IMG/VR virus record: IMGVR_UViG_3300047561_001367
Coordinates: 32,001-96,000 of that record
Length of the DNA stretch: 64,000 nt
Source of the DNA: a virus
Taxonomy: Duplodnaviria; Caudoviricetes
Direction: 5' to 3' (one strand)
The translations under genes were made by a program, and so were the position numbers. Under the pieces are notes generated by a model that did no database searches, was not told the origin of the DNA, and saw only the letters and a list, made by a program, of their open reading frames with translations. Below are positions 1 through 24,500 of this stretch, piece after piece. Every line of letters starts with the position of its first letter. Position 1 is the first letter of the stretch.

Positions 1-1632
1 AAAGAAATTCAATCGTCAGATCAAAGATTTGACACGGTAAATATTTTTACTAGTGGAGAACAAGTAAATTTTGATTCGCGCCCTACAGTTAATGGTACTG
101 GCATTTTTTTAAGTGGAGATAATGGATACTTACCATTTAACTATGTATTGGGTGATACTAACCTTGTAACTATAACTCAATCAAATAATGCTCCGGTACA
201 AACTGTAGATATCGTAAGCGATGGTGTACAATTAACTCGTGGAAGTTATGGTGTTTTATATAACCCATTAGAAGATAATGTGGGCACTGAAAATCCTTAT
301 AATACAGAATGGAATGACGATGGGTGGTCTGATCTTTCAAATATAACTGGTAGAACTTATGTAAATCTTCTTGATACCGCTGGATACGAAAATTTTGGAG
401 CTGTTATTGTTGGTAAACAACTAATAATGCATGACATAACTACCGATAAATATCATAAAGTTTTATTTAGCGCTTGGCAACAAAATGCTGGTCACAATTC
501 AAATTATCGTGGATTTTCTTACGCTAGAACCGAACTTGACTATAAACAAGAAGTGAGTGGGCTAGTAAATTTTACAACACGCCCAACAGTTAATGGAACT
601 GGAATTGTTTTAAATGGCGAAATAGATTTATCAAACTACTACACGAACGATAACCTTAGCGGGTTTATTACGGGTGTAGATTTATCAAACTACTACACGA
701 ACGATAACCTTAGCGGGTTTATTACGGGTGTAGATTTATCAAACTACTACACGAACGATAACCTTAGCGGGTTTATTACTGGATTTTCAAATCTTGAATA
801 TACAAGCGGAGATTTAACTGGGCAATTACTATCACCAACTATAAATAAAATTCAAGGATATAATATAAATCTATCAACAGCACCATTGGCAGGACAAACA
901 TTACAATGGAACGGCACTAATTGGATAGCTGGAGCAATACCTGTTGGCGGTAATGGCGGCGGCGGAAGAGTTTATTATTTTGATTTTGCAAACCAAACTG
1001 GAATTGCGCCAACGGGCGGATTGTCAACTACTGGTGATTATGGACTTTCTTTACTAGGAAGAGATTATGCTATAGGATCTGGACAAGTTATAAGTAATGA
1101 ACTAGATCCAAGATATGTAGAAAGATTATTGTGCAGTTTTGTTACAGCTAGTGGAGACCCTCAAGTAACAAATATTCCTGCTGGACTTTGGGATTTTAAC
1201 ATTTGGGCTAGCGTAAATAACCAAAGCACAACTCAGTGTTCAATTCGAGCAGAAGTTAATATATATAATACTAATAACTCAACTTATCGTTACTTAGCAT
1301 CAACCGATGATGTTTACCTATATGAAACAGACACTATTGCTCAATATATTTTAAATGCAACAGTTCCTAAAACTGGCATAGCAAGTCATGAAAGAATTTA
1401 TATAAAATTATTTGGTAAAAAATATACAACAAATAATAGAAATATTACAATTTACTTTGACTCTTACAGACCATCCCACGTTCATACTACAATTCCTTTT
1501 GTGGTTGGAAGCACTCCAACTACGTCAACAAGCATTGGCACCGCTGGAGATATGAGATATGATAATAATTATCTTTATATTTGTACGGCGACAAATACTT
1601 GGAGGCGTACATTAATTACTGGTAACTGGTAA
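1..1632 (+). CDS. Virion fibre/structural protein, 5'-truncated by the window edge
   Basis: The frame of ORF 148..1632 is open from base 1 (KEIQSSDQRFD...), so the TTG at 148 is probably not the true start. It has two F-x-x-RPTVNGTG repeats, a 'GQTLQWNGTNW' motif and a C-terminal 'GTAGDMRYDNNYLYICTATNTWRR' motif typical of phage fibres. Confidence 0.6.
   Translation, partial: KEIQSSDQRFDTVNIFTSGEQVNFDSRPTVNGTGIFLSGDNGYLPFNYVLGDTNLVTITQSNNAPVQTVDIVSDGVQLTRGSYGVLYNPLEDNVGTENPYNTEWNDDGWSDLSNITGRTYVNLLDTAGYENFGAVIVGKQLIMHDITTDKYHKVLFSAWQQNAGHNSNYRGFSYARTELDYKQEVSGLVNFTTRPTVNGTGIVLNGEIDLSNYYTNDNLSGFITGVDLSNYYTNDNLSGFITGVDLSNYYTNDNLSGFITGFSNLEYTSGDLTGQLLSPTINKIQGYNINLSTAPLAGQTLQWNGTNWIAGAIPVGGNGGGGRVYYFDFANQTGIAPTGGLSTTGDYGLSLLGRDYAIGSGQVISNELDPRYVERLLCSFVTASGDPQVTNIPAGLWDFNIWASVNNQSTTQCSIRAEVNIYNTNNSTYRYLASTDDVYLYETDTIAQYILNATVPKTGIASHERIYIKLFGKKYTTNNRNITIYFDSYRPSHVHTTIPFVVGSTPTTSTSIGTAGDMRYDNNYLYICTATNTWRRTLITGNW
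623..779 (+). repeat. Perfect 54-bp tandem repeat, ~2.9 copies (DLSNYYTNDNLSGFITGV)
   Basis: Unit TAGATTTATCAAACTACTACACGAACGATAACCTTAGCGGGTTTATTACGGGTG starts at 623 and 677, with a partial third copy at 731. Confidence 0.95.
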
Positions 1633-1637
1633 AACTT

Positions 1638-2015
1638 ATGAAATATATATTACTAGTTTTAACTATATTTTTGGTAGCCTGCGAAACAACACCAACTAAT
1701 CCAGAATTTTGGATGGAGCGCCAAGTAAATGCGTGTCTACCTACGGCTATCATATTCAAGCAAAGTTTACGTAAATATAATATTTGGAGTGAAGTTTTCC
1801 GATATTCTTGGATTGGAAAAGAGGACGGTAAATATCATGGTCACGCTATGGTCGCCTATCTATATCCACAGGGAAAAAATCAACTTTGGACGTATGACAC
1901 ACACGGCTCTTATCGTATACGCGCTTTTACAAATAATGTAACACAAATAGCCCAAGAAGCGCATAAAGTGCGCGGTAGTACAGAAAGTATTTTTAACGCT
2001 GAATTTATTAAATAG
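1638..2015 (+). CDS. Lipoprotein with a putative papain/transglutaminase-like Cys-His-Asp domain
   Basis: Signal peptide with lipobox LVAC; NACLP...GHAMVAY...WTYD ordering. Confidence 0.45.
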   Translation: MKYILLVLTIFLVACETTPTNPEFWMERQVNACLPTAIIFKQSLRKYNIWSEVFRYSWIGKEDGKYHGHAMVAYLYPQGKNQLWTYDTHGSYRIRAFTNNVTQIAQEAHKVRGSTESIFNAEFIK

Positions 2016-2051
2016 ATTTTGATAATTTGTTTTATGTGTACATAATATAGT

Positions 2052-2336
2052 ATGAGATATTTGCTATTGATTGTATTCCCTTTATTAACAGGATGTATTT
2101 GTTTAAATCCAGCGCATAAAAAAGCCGCCCCTCCGATTGCTAATACTAATCGCGTTATTGATTCGTTAAATAATACAAAAGATAATTTGACTAAAGCTGG
2201 CGAGTCAAACACGATAGTTGGCGAAAAAATAGACAAGGCTCTAACATTAGCCGAAAGATTAGAAATTCTTTTACAGCAGATCGAAACAGAAAAACAAACG
2301 GTAGATGCTAAGAAAATAAAGGAACCAATTAAATGA
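2052..2336 (+). CDS. Lipoprotein with coiled coil, possible spanin component
   Basis: Lipobox LTGC, helical C-terminus, located in the lysis cluster. Confidence 0.45.
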   Translation: MRYLLLIVFPLLTGCICLNPAHKKAAPPIANTNRVIDSLNNTKDNLTKAGESNTIVGEKIDKALTLAERLEILLQQIETEKQTVDAKKIKEPIK

Positions 2337-2875
2337 AAAAACTCGCAACATTAATTATTTTACTAACCATATCTTCGACTGGTTTTGCTTGGCCTTGGAA
2401 CGGCAAGCCACTTTCTGGGCCACTTGTTAAGCCAACCCCAGTGCCAGCAGCAGTTGTTGTAGTGCCGTCTCAAAATCCAGTTAACGACGCGCGCGCGCTC
2501 GTGCGCGAGCTAAACGGTGAATTAAAAATTGCTAAAAGTGAAAATATAAAATTAAAGAATAATCTTGATCAGGCGAATGGTGATTTAAAAAATAGTTTTA
2601 TATTAATTGAACAATTAAATAAAGATATTACGAGTTTAAAAGAATGGGGTGTTGTACAACAAGCTGAAGCGCAAAAATGGCTTTCTAGTTATACAAATGC
2701 AGTTAAACGTTATCATCGTCTTAAAAATATTGCCGCCGCTGTTGCTGGATTGTTTGGAATGGTGGTTGGTATTTGGTTAATGGGATTTGTTCCACCAATG
2801 TATTCTGCTTATGCATTATTATTGCCAGTTGCTGGCGCTGGCGCAGCAGCTTCCGCGCTATGGATATTTTTATAA
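2333..2875 (+). CDS. Membrane protein (signal peptide, coiled coil, two C-terminal TM segments), possible spanin-like
   Basis: Hydropathy pattern; ATGA overlap with the upstream lipoprotein gene. Confidence 0.45.
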   Translation: MKKLATLIILLTISSTGFAWPWNGKPLSGPLVKPTPVPAAVVVVPSQNPVNDARALVRELNGELKIAKSENIKLKNNLDQANGDLKNSFILIEQLNKDITSLKEWGVVQQAEAQKWLSSYTNAVKRYHRLKNIAAAVAGLFGMVVGIWLMGFVPPMYSAYALLLPVAGAGAAASALWIFL

Positions 2876-2877
2876 TT

Positions 2878-2997
2878 ATGAACAAGATCGAACAATACAC
2901 ACAACAACTAACGGAATGGATTAAAGCAAATCCAGGAAAAGCAACAATAATCGCAATTTTTATTGCTGGATTAATAATCGGTGCAGTACTATTTTAA
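2878..2997 (+). CDS. Small tail-anchored membrane protein (39 aa)
   Basis: MNKIEQYTQQLTEWIKANPGKATIIAIFIAGLIIGAVLF. The ATG at 2878 follows the previous stop, so it is a better start than 2773. Resembles the C-terminus of YqjD/ElaB-type proteins. Confidence 0.6.
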   Translation: MNKIEQYTQQLTEWIKANPGKATIIAIFIAGLIIGAVLF

Positions 2998-3477
2998 ATG
3001 TGGAATAATATTACAGATATAGCTAAAAGTGCCGCGGCTTTTCTTCAAAGTGGCAAGGCTCCACCAAACACTCCGATACAATATCGTGAAGATTTAAGTA
3101 GGATTAATTTCTTTTCATCTAAAAAATTCTTTATTGTTTTTAGTGCGATTGGATTGCTTGTTGCTTTTTATTTTGTAAGCGTTGGTATTTTATTTTTAAC
3201 TGCTTATACTCCATCATTAACAAGTTCATTCGTGACTATATTTGTTGAGATTATTAAAATATTTGCAATTATTATTTCTGTATATTTAGGATTGCAAGCT
3301 ACTATTGATTTTAAATATGGTACTGAATCCACTTACGAAAATACTAATAATACGACCACAGAATATCGTGAGGAAAAAATTATAAATGAGCAAACTATCA
3401 AGTATGCTGAGAAATATAAAGATGATCCATCATATGCGCCAATCGAATGGGCATTAGAACAAAATTTAGGCAAATAG
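2998..3477 (+). CDS. Putative holin
   Basis: Two TM helices after 'SSKKF', a charged C-terminus, directly upstream of the endolysin. Confidence 0.55.
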   Translation: MWNNITDIAKSAAAFLQSGKAPPNTPIQYREDLSRINFFSSKKFFIVFSAIGLLVAFYFVSVGILFLTAYTPSLTSSFVTIFVEIIKIFAIIISVYLGLQATIDFKYGTESTYENTNNTTTEYREEKIINEQTIKYAEKYKDDPSYAPIEWALEQNLGK

Positions 3478-3478
3478 T

Positions 3479-4174
3479 ATGAAGTCGATTAAATTAAAAA
3501 GTTTTGGTCCAGAGGTAAAACAATGGCAATTATTTCTACAAAGTGCTGGTTATAAAGTTCCAACGCCGGATGGTGCATTTGGCCCACAGACCGAACGTGA
3601 AACAATTAAATTTCAAGTTTCGCATGGGTTAACAGCTGATGGTGTCGTAGGAGAGAAAACTTGGAAATTTGTTACTAAGGTTAGCGAAAATACACCACTT
3701 TCCCAAAAATGGCCAAAGCAAGATTATAATAGTATGGTAAACTTTTACGGACCAGTCGGTGAAAATCAAACCAGTCTAGAATTACCTTATCAAATGAAAT
3801 TAGCTTGGGATACAAATATTATCGTAAAGAAAATTACCTGTAATCAAAAAGTGGTAAGCTCACTACATACTATATTAGAAAATACTTTAAAAACTTATGG
3901 ACAAAAAGATGTTGAAAAATTACGCCTTGATATGTTTGGCGGTTGTATTAATGTTCGTAGAATGCGTGGTGGTTCAAGTTGGTCAATTCATAGTTGGGGC
4001 GCGGCATACGATTTAGATCCAGATAATAATCAATTAAAGTGGGGTCGTGATCGTGCGACTTTTGCAAAAAAAGAGTATGAAGATTATTGGAAAATTGTTG
4101 AATCAGAAGGTTGGACAAGTTTGGGGCGTTCGAGAAATTTTGACTGGATGCACGCACAAGCTGCATATTTATAA
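3479..4174 (+). CDS. Endolysin: peptidoglycan-binding domain plus M15 zinc peptidase
   Basis: DGAFGPQT / ADGVVGEKTW (PG_binding_1 pattern); SIHSWGAAYD and DWMH zinc-ligand motifs of M15 peptidases. Confidence 0.9.
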   Translation: MKSIKLKSFGPEVKQWQLFLQSAGYKVPTPDGAFGPQTERETIKFQVSHGLTADGVVGEKTWKFVTKVSENTPLSQKWPKQDYNSMVNFYGPVGENQTSLELPYQMKLAWDTNIIVKKITCNQKVVSSLHTILENTLKTYGQKDVEKLRLDMFGGCINVRRMRGGSSWSIHSWGAAYDLDPDNNQLKWGRDRATFAKKEYEDYWKIVESEGWTSLGRSRNFDWMHAQAAYL

Positions 4175-4179
4175 TCCAT

Positions 4180-4962
4180 ATGGGTGATTATAGTGAAGAC
4201 TGGTTACAGCATTTAAATAAAGAAAAAACTTCGTGGGAAGCCGCTAAAAAATATAAATTTTTCGATAATAATTCTGACGAATTGGTTGTTATTTTTACTG
4301 GGCAAGGTAAATTAGTAATGTTTGATTTTTATAAAATATTTGGTCCCGTTTCAAATAAAAAATTAGATAGTTTATTTTTTTGTGATTTAAATGATGGGTT
4401 TTATTTAAGTGGAGTTCAAGGCTTTTCAAAAAGTGTTGAGGAAACTTGTGAAAAAATATCTGATTTTGCTAATAAAAAAAATTATAAAAAAATATCCTTT
4501 ATTGGAACTAGTATGGGCGGATTTGCATCTATTATGCATTCGATATATTTAAAAAATTTACAAACGGTTAAACAAATTAAAACAATGGTATTTAATCCAT
4601 ATACTTCTATTGGAAAAGTTGAATATAATGGTATGTTAAAAAAAATTAAACCAGATATAATATTTTTTCTTCAACAGCGCGGTATTCCGAGGGCGCAAGC
4701 AATAGAATTAATTTTAAATTACAAGCAAGAATATTTAAATTTAGATCATATAATAAATAACAATATATTTTTAGAAAATATTGAATATACTTATATGGTT
4801 ATACATGGGGACGTAGAAGTCGAAATAAAGAGATGTAATAAATTAAAAAATTTACCTAATTTACAAAAATTAAAATTTCCGATAGCACAGCATAATATAG
4901 CTAGAGTGTTAAAACAAGAAAATTTATTGTTGCCTATATTGGAAAAATTTGTAAATATATAA
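4180..4962 (+). CDS. Alpha/beta hydrolase fold protein
   Basis: Nucleophile elbow GTSMGG, 'VIHGD', C-terminal His (AQHN). Confidence 0.7.
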   Translation: MGDYSEDWLQHLNKEKTSWEAAKKYKFFDNNSDELVVIFTGQGKLVMFDFYKIFGPVSNKKLDSLFFCDLNDGFYLSGVQGFSKSVEETCEKISDFANKKNYKKISFIGTSMGGFASIMHSIYLKNLQTVKQIKTMVFNPYTSIGKVEYNGMLKKIKPDIIFFLQQRGIPRAQAIELILNYKQEYLNLDHIINNNIFLENIEYTYMVIHGDVEVEIKRCNKLKNLPNLQKLKFPIAQHNIARVLKQENLLLPILEKFVNI

Positions 4963-4964
4963 TT

Positions 4965-5270
4965 ATGATATTTAATATTCAAGAAATAAATTTAATAAAG
5001 TTAAGTTTAAAAAATTTTATAGCATCAGTTGACTATACTGAGAATCAAGACTATATTGATGAAAATAAAAACGATTATTTTTATATAAAAGATTTGACGC
5101 ATCGATTATATGAAAAATTAGACTATACTGGTAAAGATTTAGAAATGATTAAAGCCTATCTCAAGGAGTATATTTTTGATTTAGACGAGAAACGGTATGA
5201 GGCACAAACTCAACTTGATAATATCATTAAAGAAAAAGCTTCTATTTATTTATTAATTAATAAATTATAA
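4965..5270 (+). CDS. Hypothetical protein
   Basis: ORF fills the gap, ATG 2 nt after the previous stop. Confidence 0.6.
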   Translation: MIFNIQEINLIKLSLKNFIASVDYTENQDYIDENKNDYFYIKDLTHRLYEKLDYTGKDLEMIKAYLKEYIFDLDEKRYEAQTQLDNIIKEKASIYLLINKL

Positions 5271-10837: not shown

Positions 10838-11685
10838 AAGCTTCATATTTAAATAATTTTACATCAAGTTTTTTTTTATGGTTAGACCATGAATTATTAA
10901 GTAGAGGCGAGGCTTTTATTAATTATAGTGGAAAACTTTATGGGTCTAGCGATGCTTATTACGATGACACTTCTTCTGTATACGCAAGCCCATTTAAACA
11001 GTGGGTCTACGATTCGAGCATTACTAATGCAATAGTTCCTAGTGGAGTTTATGTAAATAATAATTTTGTTAGTAAAGGTATTAGTGGATTGAGTTTAGAT
11101 TTTAATCGCGGTAGAGTAATTTTCGATAATAATTTTGTTAATACAAATAATATAACAGCTAATTATAGTTTTAAAGAGTTTAATATATATTATACAGATG
11201 AAAAAGAAGAGAAACTTTTATTTGAAAAAGCTTATACATTAACACCTAAAGTTACTATGATTACTGGCGGATTAACAGTGTTAGAAAATCCTTATCCGTG
11301 TGTATTTTTTAAAGTAAAAACAAATGAAAATGTACCTTTTGCTTTTGGGGGTTTGGACACTACAAAAAACTGGGTTAGATGTATTGTTTTAGCTAAAGAT
11401 ATTTTTTCTTTAGATAGTCTAGTTTCGATTTTAAACGACTCCGCTAGAAAAGTATTTCCAGTATTTGAAGCAAAAGATTTACCATTTAATTATATAGGGG
11501 ATTTAAAGAGTGGGGCTTATAATTATAATGATATGTGTAACGCCCAACAGAATAATAAATTAGTATTTATTAAAAAAGTTACATGCACAAAATTTGAAGA
11601 GTCGGAAAATTTATACATTAATAAGAAAACATTGGCTGCTTTTGTAGATTTTGAAATAGAAAGCATAAGAAATCCAAGAAGTTAG
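10834..11685 (+). CDS. Putative tail terminator protein
   Basis: Immediately upstream of the tail tube; 'PYPCVF' motif; synteny. Confidence 0.45.
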   Translation: MKASYLNNFTSSFFLWLDHELLSRGEAFINYSGKLYGSSDAYYDDTSSVYASPFKQWVYDSSITNAIVPSGVYVNNNFVSKGISGLSLDFNRGRVIFDNNFVNTNNITANYSFKEFNIYYTDEKEEKLLFEKAYTLTPKVTMITGGLTVLENPYPCVFFKVKTNENVPFAFGGLDTTKNWVRCIVLAKDIFSLDSLVSILNDSARKVFPVFEAKDLPFNYIGDLKSGAYNYNDMCNAQQNNKLVFIKKVTCTKFEESENLYINKKTLAAFVDFEIESIRNPRS

Positions 11686-11730
11686 AAAAAGAAAAGTGTC
11701 CCAGTCTTATTACAGATGTAATATATAAAT

Positions 11731-12849
11731 ATGAGCAGAAATAGAATCATTTACAACGTTTTAGCGCTTTACTCGAGTCAAGTTCTTCCTAGTGGGATGC
11801 AGACAGGGGTTGGCACAATTAAGCAATTAACTCGCGTGCAATCTTTTGATGAAGATTTTACCAGAAATCTTACTGACGTTAATCAGTTCGGAAATTTAGC
11901 TGCTATTGATCGTATCGAAGTTCAAGCCCCTACTGTAAATGGTTCGCTTTCTTATTACGTTACGGATGGCAGTAATGAAAAATTCCTAGGTCTGACAGTC
12001 GGCCCTAGCGGTGGCGAAGCTGCAGATTTGACTTCTTGTATCTCGGGTATTCTTAATAAAAGTACTGATGAAAAAAATTACTATCTCCTCATCGCTGATG
12101 AAGGTAACGACGCTAGTAATTACAATACCGCAAATGTTAATGGCGGTATGGCTCAAAGTGGCGTAATCGGACTTGGTAATGGATTTATGACTTCTTATAG
12201 CGTAAAAGGCGCTGTTGGTGAAATTCCAACCGCTTCGGTTGATTTAGAAGCTCTTAACGTAAGAGTTTATGCTGACGTTGACGGTGGCGATGATGTTCCA
12301 GCGGTTAACCCTGTAAACGGCCTTCCAATTACTAGCGCACAATTCCGGTTGCCAATGGCAGCTACAAATGTTGATGGTGATCAAGTTTCGGCTTTACAAC
12401 CTGGTGACATTGAATTTACTTTGGATGGTGTTGTAGGTTACGATGAAACAAACTTAAAAGTTCAAGACTTCACATTATCTTTCGACTTGAAGCGCACGCC
12501 TTTACAAAAACTTGGTAGTAAATTTGCATTCTCTCGTGAAATTGACTTCCCAGTAACAGCAAAGCTTGATGTTAATGCAGAAGTTGGAGATTTACAAGAT
12601 GGTAACTTAGCAGATCTTCTTTGCGGTGGAACCACTTACAACTTCACAATCACAATGAAGAAACCAGATTGTAATGGTGCCGGAACGCCATCTATCGCAT
12701 ACGTTTTCAAGGGCGCAAAATTGATTTCTCAGAAATTCAGTTCGGCTATCGGAAATAATGCCAATATGAGTGCTTCTTATGAAGTTCAGTTGGGTAGCCC
12801 ACAGGACAATGTTAAGGGCATCTTTATCTCCGGATCTTACGTTGATTGA
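11731..12849 (+). CDS. Major tail tube protein
   Basis: Beta-rich, 'LTRVQSF..DF', 'VQDFTLSFDLKRTPLQKLG', internal two-domain repetition, high-expression codon bias, position before chaperones and TMP. Confidence 0.8.
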   Translation: MSRNRIIYNVLALYSSQVLPSGMQTGVGTIKQLTRVQSFDEDFTRNLTDVNQFGNLAAIDRIEVQAPTVNGSLSYYVTDGSNEKFLGLTVGPSGGEAADLTSCISGILNKSTDEKNYYLLIADEGNDASNYNTANVNGGMAQSGVIGLGNGFMTSYSVKGAVGEIPTASVDLEALNVRVYADVDGGDDVPAVNPVNGLPITSAQFRLPMAATNVDGDQVSALQPGDIEFTLDGVVGYDETNLKVQDFTLSFDLKRTPLQKLGSKFAFSREIDFPVTAKLDVNAEVGDLQDGNLADLLCGGTTYNFTITMKKPDCNGAGTPSIAYVFKGAKLISQKFSSAIGNNANMSASYEVQLGSPQDNVKGIFISGSYVD

Positions 12850-13353
12850 AACTCAAACGGGCCTGCGGCGGCCAGCGAGTGGTCGCAAGCAGTAACGTAT
12901 AATCCTGGAAATAGGGTTTGGGCTGAAGGGCGCATTTTTGAAGCTACTAGTCAGAACTCCTCTTATCCGTTTTATATTCATATAAATGATCCCGATTATA
13001 TTGTAAATCAAAGGAATAATTGGACTTATATAGGTCAGTTCAATAATAGGCCTAGTTTTGGACGTTTTAGATATATTTGGAAGCATGACCCATCAACTTC
13101 ATCGTCATTAGATTTAGAGGGTTATGTAGATGAATTACAAAATAATTTTCATACAGATGCTGAGGGTCCTGGGTTTACACTACGGAGCACATTAAAGTAT
13201 ATCACTGGTCAAAATAAATGGTATGTTGCGTGCGTTCCTAATCATCTTTTGAATACATGTGGTCCTGATACTATCCATGATAATAATCAATATATTACTC
13301 ATATAAGAGTTAACTCGGGTTGGCAACTAATAGGTTCTGGTAATAAGTTATAA
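12850..13353 (+). CDS. In-frame C-terminal extension of the tail tube (167 aa, carbohydrate-binding-like), reachable by UGA readthrough
   Basis: Same frame as 11731..12849, open for 167 codons, no in-frame ATG/GTG. Begins NSNGPAAASEWSQAVTYNPGNRVWAEGRIFEA (CBM5/12-like W..Y..G..V...G..[FY].A). Confidence 0.7.
   Translation, partial: NSNGPAAASEWSQAVTYNPGNRVWAEGRIFEATSQNSSYPFYIHINDPDYIVNQRNNWTYIGQFNNRPSFGRFRYIWKHDPSTSSSLDLEGYVDELQNNFHTDAEGPGFTLRSTLKYITGQNKWYVACVPNHLLNTCGPDTIHDNNQYITHIRVNSGWQLIGSGNKL
12863..12892 (+). promoter_or_regulatory. GC-rich RNA hairpin 3' of the tail tube UGA (candidate recoding signal)
   Basis: CTGC-G-GCGGCCA-(GCGAG)-TGGTCGC-AA-GCAG in otherwise AT-rich sequence; no U tract. 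Confidence 0.55.
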
Positions 13354-13414
13354 GTGGCCTAATTAAATTTTTCAGTGTAAGTTAGTTTAAGGTAAAAGGA
13401 TAGTAAAGGATAAT

Positions 13415-13639
13415 ATGGATATAGATCTCAATAAATTTGTAAGCGGTCTTATTGCTAGAGATGTAAAAAAATTATATCTTTCTTTTCTTTATCTTCTTGA
13501 AGATTTAAAAAATGAGGATAAAATTACCGAAGAAGAATTCCAACGTCTTCGCAAGCGCGTGCTTGACTACGGAAATAATTGTTATAGAAATATAGACGAA
13601 CAATTAAATAGTTTTGATTTCACATTAACTCAAAAATAA
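13415..13639 (+). CDS. Small hypothetical protein
   Basis: AAGGA SD-like motif and GTGTAA motif upstream. Confidence 0.7.
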   Translation: MDIDLNKFVSGLIARDVKKLYLSFLYLLEDLKNEDKITEEEFQRLRKRVLDYGNNCYRNIDEQLNSFDFTLTQK

Positions 13640-13650
13640 TATATATACAT

Positions 13651-14478
13651 ATGGATAAAAATACAAAAAATTGGTTGTACGAATTTGAAGCTAAAACCGA
13701 ATCTGGTGAAGTTAAAAAGTTTGCAGTTTTAAAAGCCAATCGGCGCATGAGGGAAGATGGCGAGTTATTTTATTCGAGTGAGGTCTCTAGATTTGCAAAA
13801 GCAGGTGTTTTACCAAAAGCGGCTTGGAATACAATCTTATCAGATGGCGGCGGAAGTATCAGTGAGAAAGACCGCGAACTATATGGAAATTTATTGATGG
13901 ATTTTCGTGATAAGTCTTTTGATTTACAGGCTATTTTAATTAAAAACGTTTCGGAAAGAAGTGAGGATGAGCAGCTTCGTAGCACGAAATTAATCGAGGA
14001 ACTTGAGGCTATCAAGCAAGAAATCCAAGGGTTTGAAGCTTCACAAATTTCTATTTTTGAGAATACGGCTGAGTCTAAAGCTAGAAATCGCGCCATCTTG
14101 TGGTGGGTTATGAATCTTGCCTATAAAAAAGAGGGTGAGACTTATGAACTATTATTTGATGGAAATAGTTTTAATGATAAATTAGATCTTTATGATTCCC
14201 TTGAGGAAGATGCTACTAAACATGCGTTCTTACTCGGGGTGTTAAGGAGAATTACTTATTTAATTACCCTTTGGTTCTTAGGTCGTGCTGAAAATACAGA
14301 GGATATGAAATCTTTTGATGACATGTTCTTAAAAGACAATGATTTGGGTTCAGAAGAAACTTCTACAGAAACTAAAACACCAGTTGTTGAGGAAAAAGTT
14401 ACAGTGACCGAGACTGTTGTTGAAAAGATTGAAGCGGTTGCTACCGAGACAGTCGCTCAGGACACTCCAGCCGCATAA
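13651..14478 (+). CDS. Putative tail assembly chaperone
   Basis: Acidic helical protein between tube and TMP. Confidence 0.55.
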   Translation: MDKNTKNWLYEFEAKTESGEVKKFAVLKANRRMREDGELFYSSEVSRFAKAGVLPKAAWNTILSDGGGSISEKDRELYGNLLMDFRDKSFDLQAILIKNVSERSEDEQLRSTKLIEELEAIKQEIQGFEASQISIFENTAESKARNRAILWWVMNLAYKKEGETYELLFDGNSFNDKLDLYDSLEEDATKHAFLLGVLRRITYLITLWFLGRAENTEDMKSFDDMFLKDNDLGSEETSTETKTPVVEEKVTVTETVVEKIEAVATETVAQDTPAA

Positions 14479-15560: not shown

Positions 15561-18500
15561 ATGGCTAATATTGATATCACCATAGGCGGAAATACACGGC
15601 AACTGGAAAAAGATATCCAGAATACCGTTAATAAATCATATAACATTAATTTAACGACAAAGGGCGATCAACCCCTTGGTCGTATTACTGGAAAAGTAAA
15701 CGAATTTACAAAATCGTTAGACGCTTCTAATGCTCGTGTTATTGCGTTCGGAGCTAGTGCTGGAGTTATTTATGGAATACAAAGGGCTTTTGATTCTTTA
15801 GTATCTTCCACAATTGAAGTTCAAAAATCTTTACAAGATATTAACGTTATTTTAAACGTTTCTACTAGTCAAATAAATAAATTTGGATCTGAACTTTTTA
15901 ACATAGCTAAAAATACTGGGCAAAGTTTTCAAGAAGTTGCCAAAGCTGCTACTGAATTTTCAAGACAGGGGTTGGGTGTTGAGGAAACTTTAAAAAGAAC
16001 AAGTCAAGCCCTAATTTTATCACGTTTAAGCGGACTGGATGCAGCAAAAAGTGTTGAAGCCTTAACGGCTGCCGTAAACTCTTTTGCTTCACAAGCCGTT
16101 ACTGCATCTGAAGTTGTTAATAAATTTGCAAATGTTGACGCTGCATTCGCAGTTAGTTCTGGCGATCTTGCGGAAGCTATTAGCCGCGTTGGTAGTAGTG
16201 CTGCACAATCTGGCGTTAGTTTAAATGAACTTATTGCTATTGTAACTTCTGCGCAGCAAACTACCGCGCGCGGTGGCGCTGTTATTGGTAACTCTTTTAA
16301 AACAATATTTACAAGATTACAACGCGGCAAGGTAGTAGACTTGTTAGGCAGTTTGGGTGTTGGAGATACTGACAGTCAAGGTAAAGTTAAATCTACAATT
16401 CAATTACTACAAGATTTAGCTAAAGTTTACGATACGCTCGGGCGCGGTCAACAGTCAGATGTGGCAGAAAAAGTCGGTGGCGTATTTCAAATTAACATTT
16501 TAAAAGCAGCTCTTGCTGATTTAGGTAAAGAATATTCTGTTTATAATAGCGCATTAAGAACTGCTGCATCGTCTACAGACCAAGCTATTTCAAGAAATGA
16601 GGCGTTGAATAAAACTTACGCAGCGCAATTAAATACCCTTAGTCAAAATGCTAAACAATTATCTGCAAATGTTGGGCAACGAGTTTTAGGTCCGACTTTT
16701 GATAGAGTCGTTGGCGGTGCAAATGATCTTCTTGGTGGCGTTAATGAAAGTGATGGTCAAGGTGTTGGAGCTACTCTTGCCAAAGGAATTCTTGATGGAA
16801 TAGGTAAAACTATTGCTGGCCCAGGATTGGCTTTAATTGGTGGCGTTCTTATTAAATTAATCGGTGACTTTAGTAAATTTGCTGCTGGTAGCGTAAAAGA
16901 ATTATTGGGTTTAAATACCGCTACTAAACAACAGGCTGATTTACAAAAGAGTGTTAATGATATTTTATCTAAGAATCCAGCGTTAATTGAATTGGCGCTT
17001 AAAGGAGAACAGGGCTTAGCAAGCGCGGCAGAAGTTTTATTATCTAATTTAAGAGCGCAAACTGTAGAGTTAGAAAAACAACAGCAAATTTCTGCTAAAC
17101 TTGCACAACAATTTTATGGCGCTGGAGTTCGTGTTACAGGTGGTGTTCCAACTGCTCCGCCAGCGCCAAAAGCCAAAGGTAAAGCGGCTGGATATATTCC
17201 GAATTTTGTTTCAGATGCAATTGCAGAAAAATATACAGCGATTTCTTTGGGTGCCACTTCTACTGTTCGTCCACATATGTCGGAAGGTACAATTGGTGGG
17301 CGGAAGTTCGTAATGAATGACCAAGAAACCGAATATCCAGGAGTGGGTCGTAATGGGGATTCAATGGTCATTCCACATTATGCTGCAAGAGGGTTCGTTC
17401 CTAATTTTGCACCAGCTAATATTAAAGCAATCAGAGAGGGGAATATATTTGAAAAACAGATAAATAAAATTTTATTTGGAATCGAATCAGATGCTGGTAG
17501 TAGGGCATTAGACTTTTTACCATCAAATTCTATTGGGTCATTACCAAGTGAAATTAAAAAAAGTTTAAATATTAGTCCAGCCTCTAGATATGGAGATGCA
17601 AAAAGAACGGAAAGTAAATCTAGCCAGGCGAATTTCGTCTCTAAAGTTCTTAGACAATTTCCGAATATACTTAATAATAGAGAACCTGATAAAAATAATT
17701 TTATTGACCTTAGCAATGCCCCAGAACTGAGTGGGTTAGCCATGTTATTTATTAATGAGGGTACTGATAAAAAGAGTTTTGCTTATTTGGGAACTGGAGG
17801 CCCTAATAAAGTAGCGCAAGGGAAAGGCTCTAATTATGGACAAAAAACTGGAAAAATTTTTCAACAAAATAAGGCTATAGCAAATAATAAAAGAAATGTT
17901 ACGATAAAAGTTCCATATTTATCAGATAAAATAGATGTATCTAAATTGCCAAGCTTGGAAAGTGGTAAAAGGTCGTATGCATCTAAATTTAAGAAATCAT
18001 TTGCATCTGGCTTCATTCCGAATTTTGCAACCACTGGTACTGGATCTGTAATTGATCTAGGAGATATAGCGGCGGGTAGCCCAATATTAAAAGGAAAAAT
18101 TGCGTCATTAATTTATCCAGGTGAGTCTAGCGGTATTCAAAAGGTACCTGTAAAATCTGTATATAGAGGTCAAGCTTTTAAAGGTCTTCTGCCGACTGCT
18201 GGCATTAATAAAGGCGAATTAAAACAGGGTATTAATATACCTAATGTTGAGGATGACGTAGAGCAGATGCTTTTAAATCAGGCTAATAATTTTGGCCAAG
18301 TACTTTCAAGTAGCGGTATACCAATGAGTGCGCTTGTAAAGGGCGAGTTGCCGAACACTGGCGCGGTAAAAGGCGCGGCAGGAGTTGCATTTGAAGGCGC
18401 GGTAAAAAGTGTTGTAAATAAAAGCTTACAGTCTACATCTCAAAATGCTAATATAGACTTTGCAAGTCCAAGTACTAAATTAAGAAGTATTTTTAATAAA

Positions 18501-21500
18501 GCTCCAGGCGTATATGACGCTAAATATACAACGGGATTAGCAGATGATGTTTTAGCTAAACTTTTAAGATTCGCGCAACCAGCCGTTGCCGGAGTCACAA
18601 AACAAGTGACGAGCGGTCCTGGATTTAAAGAGTATCAAGCTAAACGTCAAGCCGCTTTAGATGAGATTAAAAAAAGCGGGGTAACTGGATCCGTAAATAT
18701 TAAAAAAGCTTTAAGAGGTAAAGGTTTTGCGCGGGGTTTTATTCCAAATTTTTCTGCCTTACAAGACGCAGTAGCTCGTGAACAAGGGGCTGGAATTCCT
18801 AAGAGTCAAATTTATATTGCACAACATTCGCGTCTAGCAGCGGCAGGCTATAATCCATTAGGTCTTGGAGTATTTAACAAAATTGATGAACCTACAAGCG
18901 CAGCAAGAGACGGTGCAGTAAAAAAACGCGGTTATGCTGGCGGATTTATTCCAAATTTCGCAGACGAGGGTGCGCAAACTCCTAGTTTTACACAGGGTGT
19001 TTTGGCCGTTGGCACCCAATTAACTACTTTAGCTTTTATATTAGGCGCAAGAAGAGCTGATATAAATAAATCTTTAATAGATATAGCTAGAGCAAATAGG
19101 GACCAAGCGAAATCTAAAATTAAAGCGTTAAAAGAGGAATTGAATGCAAAAGTTCAAGTTGATTCTGGACTAAGAACTGCTGGCATTAACCCAGGCGTGT
19201 TAATGACCGAAAAATCTGCAAATTCACCTGAACGTCAAAGAGGTTTACAAGCACAAATTGATGCTTTAAAAAGTGGAAAGGGTAGATTTGGGCCAAGCAC
19301 GGGTCAACGCTTTATGGCAAGTGTTGGCGGTGGTCAAGGACTGGCAAATATAGGTATGTTTGCAGCTCCTATAATAGCTGAAACTATAAAAAATCAAATA
19401 CCACAAGATACAAAAGGTGGTCGTGTTGGAGCGTCAGTTGTTAGTGGTTTAGGGCAAACGGCTAGTATGGCTGGAACTGGATTTATGTTAGGTGGACCTA
19501 TGGGGGCTGTTGTTGGTGGACTTGTAGGTGCGGGTATAGCGTTCACGGATGTTATCAATCAGGCTAGTAGCGCATTACCCGAGTTGACTGCAGCAGCAGA
19601 AAAAGCTGGTCAAGCATTGAGTAGATCTAACGATCAATCCCAACAAATACGCGCTGGAATTGGTCAAATAAAAGAACTTCGTAACGCTGGAAATTTCAAA
19701 GACGCCGCTAAACAACAGTTGAATTTAGAACAGTTGATACGTGAGATGGAACTCGGCCCAGGAGTTAATCGTACAGATGCGTTAGCGGCAATTAAACAGT
19801 TAGATTTCGCTGGTTTAGAACAGGCTCTACAAAAAAATACTGATGCATTAACAAGACAGGGCACGAGTACTGGTAATATTGAAAGTATTACAAAACTTAT
19901 TGAAGGTGGGAAGGGTAAAGAAGCTGGCACAAAACTTTTTCAAATTGGGCAACGTGAAGCAGCTGGGTCTGGCAAAGAATTAAGCGCTAAAGATTATGAT
20001 AAATCTATAAGAGACATAATTAATGTTTTTAGAAAAGTTAAATCTAATGTAGAAGTAAGTCAATCAGAGTTTGAAAAACTCCCTGGATTTAGTAAAGAAT
20101 TGATAAATCAAATTGCTGATGGATCTATAGATGCAGGCCAACTTACTGACATTTTACAGGGTTTATTGGGTGCGGCTGGGGACGCAAGAAAAGAGGCTGC
20201 CGAAATTGCAAAAAGATTAGGAAAGGGAAATCCGCCACTTCAAAAATTAATTGAAAGTTTTACAACTGCCCAATCTAATATAGCTAAATTTGCACAACAA
20301 GCCGCTATTACAACCGCTCTACAAAGTGAATTAAATAATGCGATTTCTACAGCTAAAGATGCAATCCTCCAAAATGATTTAGAAAATAAATCTGAAATCT
20401 TTGGAAAAGATCTTTTAAATAATCCAAAATTAGCGCAACAGTTCGGATTAGATGCTGGTTTAAATAAAATTAAAGGGCCGGAAAATAATGATAGTGTTAT
20501 TAAAGCTCAAACTGCCCTTAGTGATTATGTAAAAAACACTATAACAAATAATTTATCAGCACAAGCCGGTGGTATATCATTATCTGGAAAAGATAGTAAT
20601 ACCCCTATTAACGATACTCTTGCAGCTGTTACGAGTTTACAAGATGTAATACAAAAATTAATTAATACGACTAGCGGTAATAATATTCAATTAAATAATG
20701 TTGGTTTAAATCCTGATGAACGTTCTACACAAATAATTGATGAAATTAAAAAATTAACTGGAAACGAAGTTTCGACGGAAGATCAGGCAAAAATTCGTGA
20801 GTTAAATCAGCAACTTGTACGAGAAACTGTAATAGGGAATACTATTCAAAGACAACAATTAAGAGTTCTAGCGCAAAACAGTATACAAAATTTAGTAAAA
20901 CAATTTGTTACAGCTACTCAAAATGCATTTGGTGGTAAAGAGGGGTTTGTAGGTGGCAATTTAGAATTATTTGATAATTTAGATCAAGCTGTGGCTGATT
21001 TCAATAATCTTCAAAATGTATCTGATAACCCATTAAAAATAGAGCAGGGTCGTGCAAGTACTACAATATTAGACGAATTAAGTAAGTTAATTGGGCGTGA
21101 CGTAACGGGTTCGCTAAGTCCAGATAACATGTTAGTTAAATCTGCAACGCAAGGTCAAGCCCTTGACTTGCAAGCAAATATTGAAGAAATGCTATCCACT
21201 ATCACAAAACTTCCTGGTGGCGGTGAAGATTTAAAAGGTACAATAGTTAGCTTATTGCGTGAGCAAAGTGGGGCTGGGACGAATAATATACAAGATATCG
21301 CACAGCAAATGGCTAAAACGCGGGTTGGTGGTCAACAAGCAAATAATGGTTTATTAGAGGACCTTAGAAGAAATGCAATAGCTAATTTAGAAGATCTAAA
21401 TAAAAGGGAAGGTAGCAAGGGTAAATATGATGAAATCATAAAGATGGCTAAAGAAAATCCATCTGGCATATTTAATGATACCCAAAGTTTAATTGCTAGT

Positions 21501-24500
21501 GAAACTTCAAGACAAACGGGTATTCTAGAACAGATATTAAATGCAATTAATAATAAAGGAGGGCTTACTGGTGAGACTCAAAAAACAACATCTGATACTA
21601 CAAATACACAGTCAGAATCTACTGATAGAAAGATTAAAGTAAGGCCGGTTCCAGAAAATTCATCCTATACCACTATGTCTTCCGGCTTTGTTCCTTCATT
21701 CGCCAAAGAAGCTCGTGATATTAAAAAGGGTATTGGCGGCGCGCTTGCTAGTGACAGAGCTAAATTCATTCCGAATTTAAACGGCAAACCAGCCGTGATT
21801 AATAGCGGCGAAAAATTAATTCCTAATTTTGCTAATACTGGACAAACAGCCGTATTAACCAGAAACATGCAGAAGATGATGAATATGGCCGGTGGCTTTA
21901 TTCCGAATTTTGCAACAGGTTCTGCCAAAGATGAAAAACAATTACAAGAAGCGTTACTTAGAGCGGCTGGAGTAAACTCCCTTGTTCAAAAAAATCTTGG
22001 GCTAGGATTTGAGAACCCATTAGGGGCAGCTGGAGAAATACCTAGCGTGGAAAGATTTAATGCAAATGATCCTAATAATAAAAACTATAGGGCTTTTACT
22101 GAAATTTACGGACGTTCCGCTAAAGTTTCATTCAAAGCTGGCGCTGTAGGGGTAGGAACAATATCTAATGAGGCTACAGCATTAACACAAAATTTACTAC
22201 CGACCACTAATAATCCAAGCAAATTAAGTGAAAATCTTAGTCAATCGAGTGAAATGAATAGGGCGGTTGGAATTCGTGGAACTAATAAGGACAGTTTAGC
22301 AAAAGCTCAAAAAGAATATCGGAAAAGATTAGAAAAATATGCAGATAAAATTGTTGCATTAAATGAGAAAGCTGGTAAACCATTTGCGAAAACAGAAAAT
22401 CTTAAACTTTCTGGAATGGAAGGTTATGATAAAAGAGCGTTCGGTGTAAATGATGCAAGTAGGGGTATTATAACGTCAGAATTTGTTAAATCGAATTCGA
22501 GAGATTATAGTATTGAAAGATTAAGTACTCTAAATTCAATGCTATTTGAGGGGATACAGAGGGGAGGGATTACTGCTGAAGATCTTATATCCCAAGGAAT
22601 CGCTAAAAATAAAGACGAGTCAGATTACATGATAAGAGAAATTGAAAAAATTTCAAATCTTACTTCTACACCTACGCCGAAGCCTACGGCTACGCCAAAG
22701 CCTAAGCCCGCACCTGCGCCTACTCCCACGGCTACGCCAAAGCCGGTTCCTACCGCAACACCTAAACCCGCGTCACCATCTCCATTACCACCGCCAACAA
22801 ACACACCTACATCTACCCCATTAATACCTAAAAATTTACCAATTGGTGCGACGCCATTTTCTAGAGCCTCCATTCTAACAAATTTTAGGGACAACCCAAT
22901 AGAAAATCCAGGTAATATAAACCGTATGGTAACAGATAAAAATGGCAGACTTGTGGGTTATTCACGTCAATTAGTTGATGGAAAAGCTATGGCTAAAGCT
23001 GGTAAAAGCGTATCTGAAATAGAAAAAGCAACAAGAATGGCTAGAGACGCGGCTCGTGCGGCAAATAGTCCATATCAATTAATTGGTGGACAAAATAATC
23101 GCCCAGGGGTACAAATTAATAAAACAACTGGTATGTCTAATTACGTTCCAAAGGCGGTTTTAAATGATAAAAAAACTACTGGAGATTTATCACAAAGAAT
23201 TACTGATTTAAAGAATCAACGCAGTCAAGCTAGCCAACCATCACAAATATCAAGACGTTTAGATGGAGTTATTACTCCTGGAGTTAGTTTCGAGAGAGTA
23301 GGGCGGGATGTTTATAGAGATACGGCAACAGGTGCATTAACTAGTAATCGTCAAATGTCTGCGGGTAAAGTAACGACTTCTGCTATGCGCGAAGCCCAAG
23401 CTCGCCAAGACGAGATGAATAAAAGGGCAAATTATTCTACAGGATTTATTCCAAATTTTGTTAATGCTGCTGACTATAATAAGCAAAGAATAACTCAGAT
23501 GACTCCAGATAAAGATGGGTTAGTTCCCAACTCTCCATTTTCAAAAATAGCTAGAAAATATTACGATAGAAATTTACTTCAAAAAAATATTGGTTTTAGT
23601 GAATTTGAGACACTTTATGGTAGGGCTAACGGGATTGGAGAGGGTAATGGATTGGGTATCGGTCCTGATTCATATTTAACAACAGCTAGTGTTGCAAAGG
23701 GCACCCCAAAATCAAGAAAACTTCCGATGGCTATTCAAATGGCGCTTTTTAATAGAGCGGCCTCGCCAATTTCAGAATATACTAGCCTGTTTGATAACAC
23801 TACAATTAAAACTGGTGGTGGCAGAGGTATTCCAGCCGCTAATTATACAAATGTCGAAAAAGAGGGTAGAATTTCATCTTATAGAAATGGGCGTTTGATG
23901 TCTGTTCAACGGCCATCTAATGAAAGCTATGTGACAGAGGGAACTACGGATGATACTATAGCAAAAAATATCGGCAAAGGAATAACTCAATATTTTGGAT
24001 CAAAAGACGCACAATTGGGTGGCTTGGGAAGTTACAAGGGTAGAAGAGAAGTCCAAGGAAATACAACTTCATTATACGATAAAAGTGATAAACTTATTGG
24101 TACTGCATATAGTCTTGTAGGTGGGGAGGCAATGAGACAAGCTGGTAAGAGTATATCCCAAATAGAAGCCGCGACTAGAGCGGTCAGACAAACGAATGAG
24201 CAAAAACCTGGCGGCACTGGGGAAATATATCATGTAGGACCAAAAGCTGGTGAACGTACAGAAGCACAAAAAAATAAAGATGCCGGAATTAACCCAGTTA
24301 GTGCTCCTAGTTTAGATTCCATGCCAGATAAGGAAAAAATTAAGCCAGCATATGCACACGGTTTTATTCCAAATTTTGCTAAAAATTTTGATGGCAAATC
24401 ATTCTTACGCGCGGCAAAAGAGGCGGCTAACGCAGAAATTCAGCAAACAGGTGGTACCGCAAGACCAGCACTTGGATTTGATAAAGGCAATCCAAATAAA

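Follow-up and report, generated by a model that had tools for sequence, protein, structure and literature searches.

A start-less open frame behind the UGA stop of a phage tail tube gene as a candidate readthrough cassette

A 64,000-nucleotide stretch of the tailed-phage record IMGVR_UViG_3300047561_001367 (Caudoviricetes; positions 32,001 to 96,000 of that record, hereafter called the window) contains a tail tube gene that ends in TGA and is followed, in the same frame, by 167 sense codons that include neither ATG nor GTG. Near-cognate readthrough of the tube UGA appears to be the best explanation for this arrangement, and we regard it as rather probable on the strength of sequence comparisons. 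Taken more broadly, the data may describe a mobile readthrough cassette composed of two tube codons, the UGA, a linker and a split scaffold resembling carbohydrate-binding module (CBM) family 5/12 with a swappable insert. Such a cassette would build a mixed tail tube in large freshwater-type double-stranded DNA (dsDNA) siphophages and would be exchanged among relatives, in which it replaces a terminator, and sister lineages would use a second, fused tube paralogue instead; it would also provide the first documented structural protein of a tailed DNA phage that is made by readthrough. This wider proposal strikes us as about evenly balanced. The arrangement is well supported as a conserved genetic layout and is unproven as a translational event.

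The source record is an IMG/VR virus contig of 125,470 bp with 33% G+C, rated 71% complete. The ATG at 11731 opens a 372-codon open reading frame (ORF) that ends in TAC GTT GAT TGA (12847-12849), and beyond this stop the zero frame remains open for 167 sense codons (12850-13350) up to a TAA at 13351-13353; re-reading of coordinates and frame confirmed this opening, which had been described in an earlier note made from the window's sequence. ATG and GTG are absent from these codons, and the sole canonical start codon is a TTG at codon 134. The remaining five frames across the same interval contain 11-24 stops each. Given the local base composition, a stop-free run of 167 codons has a chance probability of about 4e-6, and not one of 100,000 shuffled versions remained open; the extension is the longest start-less open frame of the 125-kb genome. 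It fills what the same note had called a gap of about 0.5 kb, the distance between the tube gene and the next gene (13415) being 565 bp in the window versus about 90-120 bp in 23 relatives. As to stop usage, 117 crude ORF calls ended 80 times in TAA, 20 times in TGA and 17 times in TAG, which agrees with the preference for TAA that had been noted. The other TGA-ended ORFs stay open for 0-25 codons further or run straight into a neighbouring gene with its own start. All long ORFs, including one of 3121 codons, are intact under genetic code 11 and none has an in-frame TGA; because of this, and because about 20 ORFs end in TGA, this codon is a normal stop in the phage.

The cassette was found in four other independent assemblies. 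In L168 (Logan ERR5439978), the tube is 99% identical to that of the window, and the junction, including its TGA, is identical. L025 (ENA ERZ4222710) is a 920-bp contig that includes no more of the tube gene than its last 22 nt; its junction reads SYNN-TGA-AAC TCA AAC, and it shows 96% nucleotide identity to the window with a one-codon in-frame deletion. L169 (Logan SRR9302961) has a tube that is 91% identical, the junction SYVD-TGA-AAC TCA AAC and an extension of 135 codons with a shorter body, which we call type B as opposed to type A of the window and L025. L028 (JGI Ga0209597), with a tube of 63% identity, has the junction SFA-TAA-ATA GCA GAC and a type B extension of 133 codons. TGA-A is found at the junction of four of the five cassette-bearing contigs and in none of the more than 25 extension-less relatives (among them 23 from IMG/VR and the contig L170). 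The TGA at the junction is not a sequencing error, a concern that had been raised for the window, because the same TGA recurs in L168, L025 and L169, three other assemblies from other data sets.

Comparison of L169 with L170 (ENA ERZ27280238) defines the limits of the cassette. The two contigs show 96-98% identity on either side of a single block, to which their difference is exactly confined and which consists of GTT GAT TGA, the extension and a T-run in L169 versus GTA AGT TAA, a spacer and a terminator in L170. It follows that the cassette is an accessory element, moves between phages by recombination and brings its own TGA along. L169 and L170 form a near-isogenic phage pair, cassette plus versus minus, and are as such a natural control. 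The first ~110 nt and the last ~40 nt of the L028 extension are about 97% identical to those of L025 despite tube genes that are saturated with synonymous changes (pS 0.7), and cassette exchange is therefore indicated again. Both junction variants have a stop-free, in-frame spacer of three codons where relatives have an AT-rich, stop-laden one. Scans of IMG/VR with the window extension, the L028 extension and the protein P0003 as queries found no relatives, and a scan of the same collection for the 15-mer GGGCCTGCGGCGGCC gave more than 119 chance matches in GC-rich phages, none of them related. The earlier note's expectation that homologues keep both the TGA and a selected open frame holds within the cassette-bearing lineage; most homologues have neither, because the extension is an accessory cassette.

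In 23 IMG/VR relatives with 47-82% identity, the tube gene ends in TAA at the homologous position without exception (23/23). As every extension-less relative examined has TAA, the view that TGA is exceptional for this gene was borne out. Their layout consists of the TAA, an AT-rich and stop-laden spacer of about 25 nt, a strong intrinsic terminator, a conserved leader and a gene for 74 amino acids (aa). The closest extension-less relative, L170, has 87% protein identity, and its tube gene ends SYVS-TAA, followed by a terminator with a 9-bp stem and T8. A terminator scan of window positions 11500-13800 found none. The extension is, as far as these alignments indicate, specific to this lineage and replaces the stop, the spacer and the terminator with a block of about 0.5 kb. 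Within the junction and linker, AAACGGGCC resembles the 5' arm of the tube-gene terminator hairpin of extension-less relatives, and candidate remnants of terminator arms lie at both cassette edges, namely AAACGGGC (ACGGGC...) at the 5' edge and TAAGTGGYC with a degenerate T-run at the 3' edge. On these short similarities, the cassette may sit between the two arms of an ancestral terminator. An intergenic block, GTGTAAGTTAGTTTAAGGTAAAAGG..AGTAAAGGA (window 13373-13414), precedes the 74-aa gene, and its sequence is conserved to a very high degree, also where the tubes of two phages are only 63% identical. This block is likely a promoter or a translation leader, and it likely also acts as the right-hand homology arm for cassette exchange. 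The 74-aa gene itself begins with TTG in L025 (L025:588-590), and the window has ATG (13415).

Four versions of the extension (window, L025, L169 and L028) were compared to one another. In all four, the first 74 codons contain no ATG, GTG or TTG. Between the window and L025, 13 synonymous and 10 non-synonymous changes correspond to a pN/pS of 0.20 (binomial P 2e-4), 13 of the 23 changes are at third positions, and there is one in-frame indel of 3 nt. Between L169 and L028, pN/pS is 0.58 (P 0.007), with several indels, all of them frame-preserving. An antisense ORF at 12853-13086 was dropped, since substitutions are concentrated at the third codon positions of the sense frame. Protein searches used 1.84 billion representatives of 15 billion proteins. 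A phmmer search of this set with the extension returned P0001-P0003 only, and a profile search with five sequences added nothing. P0001 is a gene call that starts from an internal ATG of L025 at codon 75, and P0003 is a free-standing homologue of 212 aa with its own ATG, about 40 extra N-terminal residues and about 32% identity over the whole length. No stop-less fusion of tube and extension was found in this set, and the stop is for that reason regarded as a stable part of the design. The extension thus appears to be a real, selected protein domain that is start-less when attached to the tube and has its own start when free-standing, and its reading as junk is unlikely.

The upstream gene had been taken for a tail tube gene, and structural comparison upheld this. 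An AlphaFold model of the tube protein, built from a 21-sequence alignment, has moderate confidence (pLDDT 66, pTM 0.68). VIA-align matched it to T5 pb6 (5ngj) with Z 17.3 over residues 4-370 (283 aligned), to the P74-26 tube (8ed0) with Z 17.0 over residues 6-372, and to the SH-Ab15497 major tail protein with Z 16.6; Foldseek gave E values from 2e-9 to 1e-8, with the DT57C and T5 tubes at 2e-9. Single-domain tubes and Hcp proteins fit each half of the model separately (Z 6-8). Since a full-length match of pb6 type is combined with halves that each match single-domain tubes, the product is considered to be a duplicated-domain tail tube protein, and the 372-aa protein is predicted to be the major tail tube protein, of the T5 pb6/P74-26 duplicated type. 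Neither the tube nor the extension was matched by Pfam or PHROGs at default thresholds, or by tblastn against 50,697 cultured phage records. Synteny is in line with the assignment. Head-completion genes lie upstream, and genes for 74, 275 and 345 aa and then for a 3121-aa tape measure lie downstream; the gene order is common to the 23 relatives, in which the tube precedes chaperone-like genes and the tape measure. The ORF at the tape-measure position (3121 codons, window 15561-24926) starts 2.7 kb downstream of the tube gene. If tail length scales as in other siphophages, this ORF implies an exceptionally long tail of roughly 0.45 micrometre. Elsewhere in the same genome and outside the window, a 265-aa ORF (G000:C1:111801-112598, minus strand) shows 27% identity (E 6e-9) to residues 243-351 of the tube. 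This ORF, which has a counterpart in the relative G003, encodes another protein of the tube fold that is only distantly related and might act as a tail terminator or be a distal tube-like protein. A scan of genome contigs with the tube gave only distant matches in three metagenome-assembled genomes of unrelated phyla, from which no host could be inferred.

The start of the extension had been likened to CBM5/12. Pfam CBM_5_12 (PF02839) gives the window extension 15.6 bits (E 0.016, model positions 1-27 of 44) against a cut-off of 26.2, and gives L028 and L169 15.0 and 14.2 bits against the same cut-off. Extension residues 10-36 resemble the repeats of P0002, a Bacteroidota M4 peptidase secreted by the type IX secretion system (T9SS) with three genuine CBM5/12 repeats, with a phmmer E of 2e-4 library-wide, a BLASTP E of 2e-5 and 44-46% identity to each repeat. 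ESM-Atlas features of the extension place viral CBM5/12 clusters at 0.83, which is a lead only, and a six-frame scan of the genome identified the extension as the sole CBM5/12 signal. The proposed likeness therefore stands as a pattern, backed by the matches to P0002 and the ESM-Atlas lead, and as a family assignment it falls short of the Pfam cut-off and is best treated as tentative. Both the extension and the P0002 repeats contain W-x4-Y-x2-G-[DN]-R-V-x3-G-x-[IL]-F-E-x-T followed by a strand G-W-x-[LF]-I. In the extension this strand lies at the C-terminus, where SGWQLIG is in register with the GWIFI that closes each P0002 repeat. Canonical CBM5/12 domains end in W-x-L. By inspection, the C-terminal strand probably closes the CBM-like fold. 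An AlphaFold model of the extension was too poor for a fold search (pLDDT 37 overall, body below 50); its only strands are at residues 16-42 and 152-163, with pLDDT 50-64 and the highest local confidence at 152-163. One reading, and only a reading, is that the domain is a single CBM5/12-like unit whose two halves are kept apart by a variable insert, about 120 residues long in type A and about 90 in type B; in ordinary modules, the corresponding distance is 1-10 residues. Carbohydrate binding by the extension may be expected from this likeness.

Under the readthrough explanation, a cassette of the TGA, a 9-residue linker and a 158-residue domain would have taken the place of the TAA and the intrinsic terminator. 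Because the extension is selected, has no start and continues the zero frame immediately after the stop, it would be translated only by ribosomes that come from the tube gene. The majority of these would halt at the UGA and produce the plain 372-aa subunit, and a small share would insert a residue at UGA-A, most likely tryptophan via near-cognate tRNA-Trp, to produce a subunit of 540 aa. UGA followed by A is reportedly the classic leaky context in Escherichia coli. In a tube of the pb6/P74-26 type, which has two tube domains per chain and three chains per ring, the extra domain would project outside the tube, at the place where pb6 has an Ig-like domain. Scaling from T5 by the 3121-aa tape measure suggests roughly 300 tube subunits per tail, and readthrough of a few percent would result in a handful to a dozen or so decorated subunits on each. 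A long tail sparsely studded with glycan-binding modules could aid reversible adsorption. A programmed frameshift like that of SPP1 was excluded, since the extension is in the zero frame and the other two forward frames contain 12 and 24 stops.

Several observations weigh against readthrough. The leaky UGA-A context comes from E. coli and may not hold in the host. The junction stop of L028 is TAA-A, and TAA is a tight stop in model bacteria. The hairpin behind the stop is strong in the window and L169 (z -2.7) and weak in L025 and L028 (-13.5 kcal/mol, z -0.5), and because of this weakening no conserved stimulator is evident. The TGA junctions are common by descent or recombination, so that they represent about one evolutionary event and not four, and part of the purifying selection may predate the exchange and derive from another genomic context. 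The 71%-complete contig lacks the tRNA cluster region of its relatives and has no tRNA in its 125 kb; complete relatives have 15-20 tRNAs each, some with tRNA-Trp(CCA). The CBM5/12 assignment is below threshold in Pfam, and the structure model of the extension is poor.

The alternative that survives best, which we consider unlikely, is that the extension is silent or decaying and is not translated. It could have been left over when a nonsense mutation interrupted a tube gene formerly fused to the domain, or it could be an accessory gene that lost its 5' end, arrived behind the tube gene and hitch-hikes by recombination. The free-standing P0003 with its own start would fit such an origin, as would the presence of the cassette in L169 and its absence from the near-identical L170, the tight TAA of L028 and the direct, stop-less domain fusions of other family members. 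Recent exchange could also keep frames open without selection at the site, but the low pN/pS (0.2, P 2e-4) with its enrichment at third positions and the indels that are all in frame in two body types argue for selection on the protein. The frame is, moreover, open in five contigs with two long-diverged body types among them, the stop-laden spacer was swapped for a stop-free, in-frame one of three codons in both junction variants, and no fused donor exists in the protein universe searched.

That a dedicated agent decodes the stop seems distinctly improbable. Three such agents were considered: a phage suppressor tRNA whose gene lies within the 29% of the genome that the contig lacks, stop hopping by peptidyl-tRNA, and hairpin-directed selenocysteine insertion. 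The loss of the tRNA region from the contig, the 15-20 tRNAs of complete relatives and the tRNA-Trp(CCA) of some of them would allow for the first, but there is no suppressor among the ~90 tRNAs of five relatives (0/~90), about 20 other ORFs use TGA to terminate in the usual way, and no other long ORF contains it in frame. Hopping is compatible with the codon pairs of L025 (AAU-UGA-AAC) and L028 (GCU-UAA-AUA-GCA); it was not adopted, as the codon preceding the stop in the window is GAU, to which no landing codon corresponds, and hopping would not be conserved. Selenocysteine insertion could draw on the hairpin that begins 13 nt past the UGA in the window and L169, against which stand the loss of the hairpin in L025, the TAA of L028 and the absence of any Rfam SECIS match up to E 10; the same Rfam search assigned the hairpin to no family and returned irrelevant weak matches only.

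We give little credence to a third possibility, in which the extension is translated alone, by non-canonical initiation or by re-initiation after the tube stop, into a free protein of 18 kDa. Terminating ribosomes would indeed be delivered to the extension, which the stop directly adjoins, and L028 has ATA directly after its TAA; on the other hand, no Shine-Dalgarno-like sequence occurs at the junction, and none of the four versions has an ATG, GTG, TTG or conserved near-cognate codon upstream of the CBM-like half. The ATG at codon 75 of the L025 extension, the start of the gene call P0001, is a candidate site, but it is not conserved and would skip the most conserved part. The free-standing P0003 has a normal start and illustrates the form of an independent gene in this family. 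A sequencing or assembly artefact, or a TGA read as sense throughout, could be suspected in a metagenome-assembled contig and given that some phages recode stops, and is effectively refuted by the recurrence of the TGA in Logan ERR5439978, ENA ERZ4222710 and Logan SRR9302961 and by the long ORFs, the 3121-codon tape measure included, that are intact under code 11 in a genome where TGA ends about 20 ORFs.

The coordinates of the features discussed here are given in Table 1.

Table 1. Features of the tube gene and the cassette behind it, in window coordinates
Feature	Position	Strand	Basis or remark
Tail tube protein gene, 372 codons, predicted duplicated tube-domain type	11731..12846	+	Fold match, synteny
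Whole exchangeable cassette: tube codons GTT GAT, TGA, extension, T-run remnant	12841..13372	+	L169 versus L170
TGA stop, next base A (TGA-A)	12847..12849	+	Position of the TAA of relatives
Junction and linker NSNGPAAAS, start-less	12850..12876	+	
GC-rich hairpin, 11 pairs, 5-nt loop, beginning 13 nt past the UGA	12863..12892	+	dG -21.2 kcal/mol, z -2.7
CBM5/12-like N-terminal half, extension residues 10-36, EWSQAVTYNPGNRVWAEGRIFEATSQN	12877..12957	+	Sub-threshold Pfam, BLASTP
Variable body of the extension; type A in window and L025, shorter type B in L169, L028 and P0003	12958..13314	+	Alignments
Conserved C-terminal strand SGWQLIGSGNKL	13315..13350	+	Kept in 4/4 extension versions
TAA stop of the extension	13351..13353	+	
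GTGGCC and degenerate T-run, likely 3' arm and tail remnant of an ancestral terminator	13354..13372	+	Compared with L001-L004, L017, L019, L170

The C-terminus of the tube appears from these comparisons to be a hot spot for additions in this family, and it is where tubes of this type carry surface domains, as the earlier note's idea of a C-terminal surface extension supposes. Direct C-terminal fusions in the same tube family occur in P0099, P0123, P0071, P0113 and a 732-aa paralogue of L018, and P0123 and P0099 are second tube paralogues located elsewhere in their genomes. The tubes P0007, P0009 and P0052 have Ser/Glu-rich low-complexity tails fused after GIFISGS[FY], a further type of appendage at this site. 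Pfam found no match for the fused domains of P0099, P0123, P0071 and P0113, and the extension showed no significant similarity to the domain fused at the C-terminus of P0113 (E 0.03). A mixed plain and decorated tube seems to be reached in two ways, either with two genes or, in the window, with one gene and a leaky stop.

Additional tube loci were observed in relatives. L018:921-5191 (IMGVR_UViG_3300002092_001548) has tandem tube genes, in which a 732-aa copy (921-3119) contains Gly_rich_2 (PF21722) at residues 409-628, and a 266-aa gene with a weak sulfotransferase match lies between this copy and a plain 401-aa tube gene (3986-5191). With such tandem genes, a mixed tube may be built from two genes. 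Outside the tail operon, L177:1501-3186 and L178:283-1875 encode two tube paralogues (561 and 530 aa), each with a C-terminal domain of no known family fused to it; one of the two adjoins Thy1 and Endonuclease_1 genes. In L167:6701-7133 (relative G005, IMGVR_UViG_3300002092_001548), ARAGORN called a tmRNA-like sequence with a 32-residue tag inside a cluster of 13 tRNAs.

If readthrough at the tube stop is true, programmed readthrough would be extended to dsDNA phages. Standard gene callers miss domains of this kind, and the 15 billion-protein collection contains one fragment of the extension. The near-isogenic pair, together with the TGA and TAA junction variants, would constitute a compact natural system for studying how the occupancy of adhesion domains on tails is tuned, and a split CBM scaffold with exchangeable inserts may serve as a display scaffold.

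Tailed phages add optional surface domains to capsids and tubes by frameshifting, and in-frame readthrough is textbook knowledge for RNA phages and eukaryotic viruses. In a literature search that did not cover all journals, no tailed phage turned up whose tube or capsid protein is reported to undergo stop-codon readthrough. In the Bacillus phage SPP1 (gp17.1/gp17.1*) and in the Listeria phages A118 and PSA, two forms of the major tail protein are produced from one gene via frameshifting; the long form of SPP1 is the minority (3:1), and the phage can do without its C-terminal surface domain, for which a role in binding cell-wall carbohydrate has been proposed (PMC8718954, PMC5009743). The arrangement proposed here resembles that of these phages in that only a minority of the tube subunits would carry the C-terminal surface domain, which is optional. 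It differs in that they use a programmed +1 or -1 frameshift, whereas the extension lies in the zero frame behind a stop, and in that their added domain is FN3/Ig-like, whereas here it is CBM5/12-like with a variable insert, on a tube of the duplicated pb6 type. Residues 1-374 of pb6 form the tube, and its C-terminal Ig-like domain projects outward (PMC8718954). The tubes of T5, DT57C and P74-26 are the best structural matches and have the same tube-domain duplication, and the 372-aa tube ends exactly where the decoration domain of pb6 begins. In T5, by contrast, the Ig-like domain is fused without a stop and is consequently on every subunit, and sequence identity to the present tube is about 8-12%. 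In the RNA phage Qbeta (Qubevirus), the coat gene has a leaky UGA, and a few percent of subunits acquire a start-less in-frame extension via near-cognate tRNA-Trp, which yields A1. Here too, as known from sequence, the gene of a major virion protein ends in UGA and is followed by an in-frame, start-less extension; Qbeta is, however, a single-stranded RNA phage in which A1 is an essential capsid protein, whereas the present case concerns the tail tube of a large dsDNA tailed phage and an accessory cassette. The closest known system is functionally SPP1 gp17.1*, structurally T5 pb6 and mechanistically Qbeta A1.

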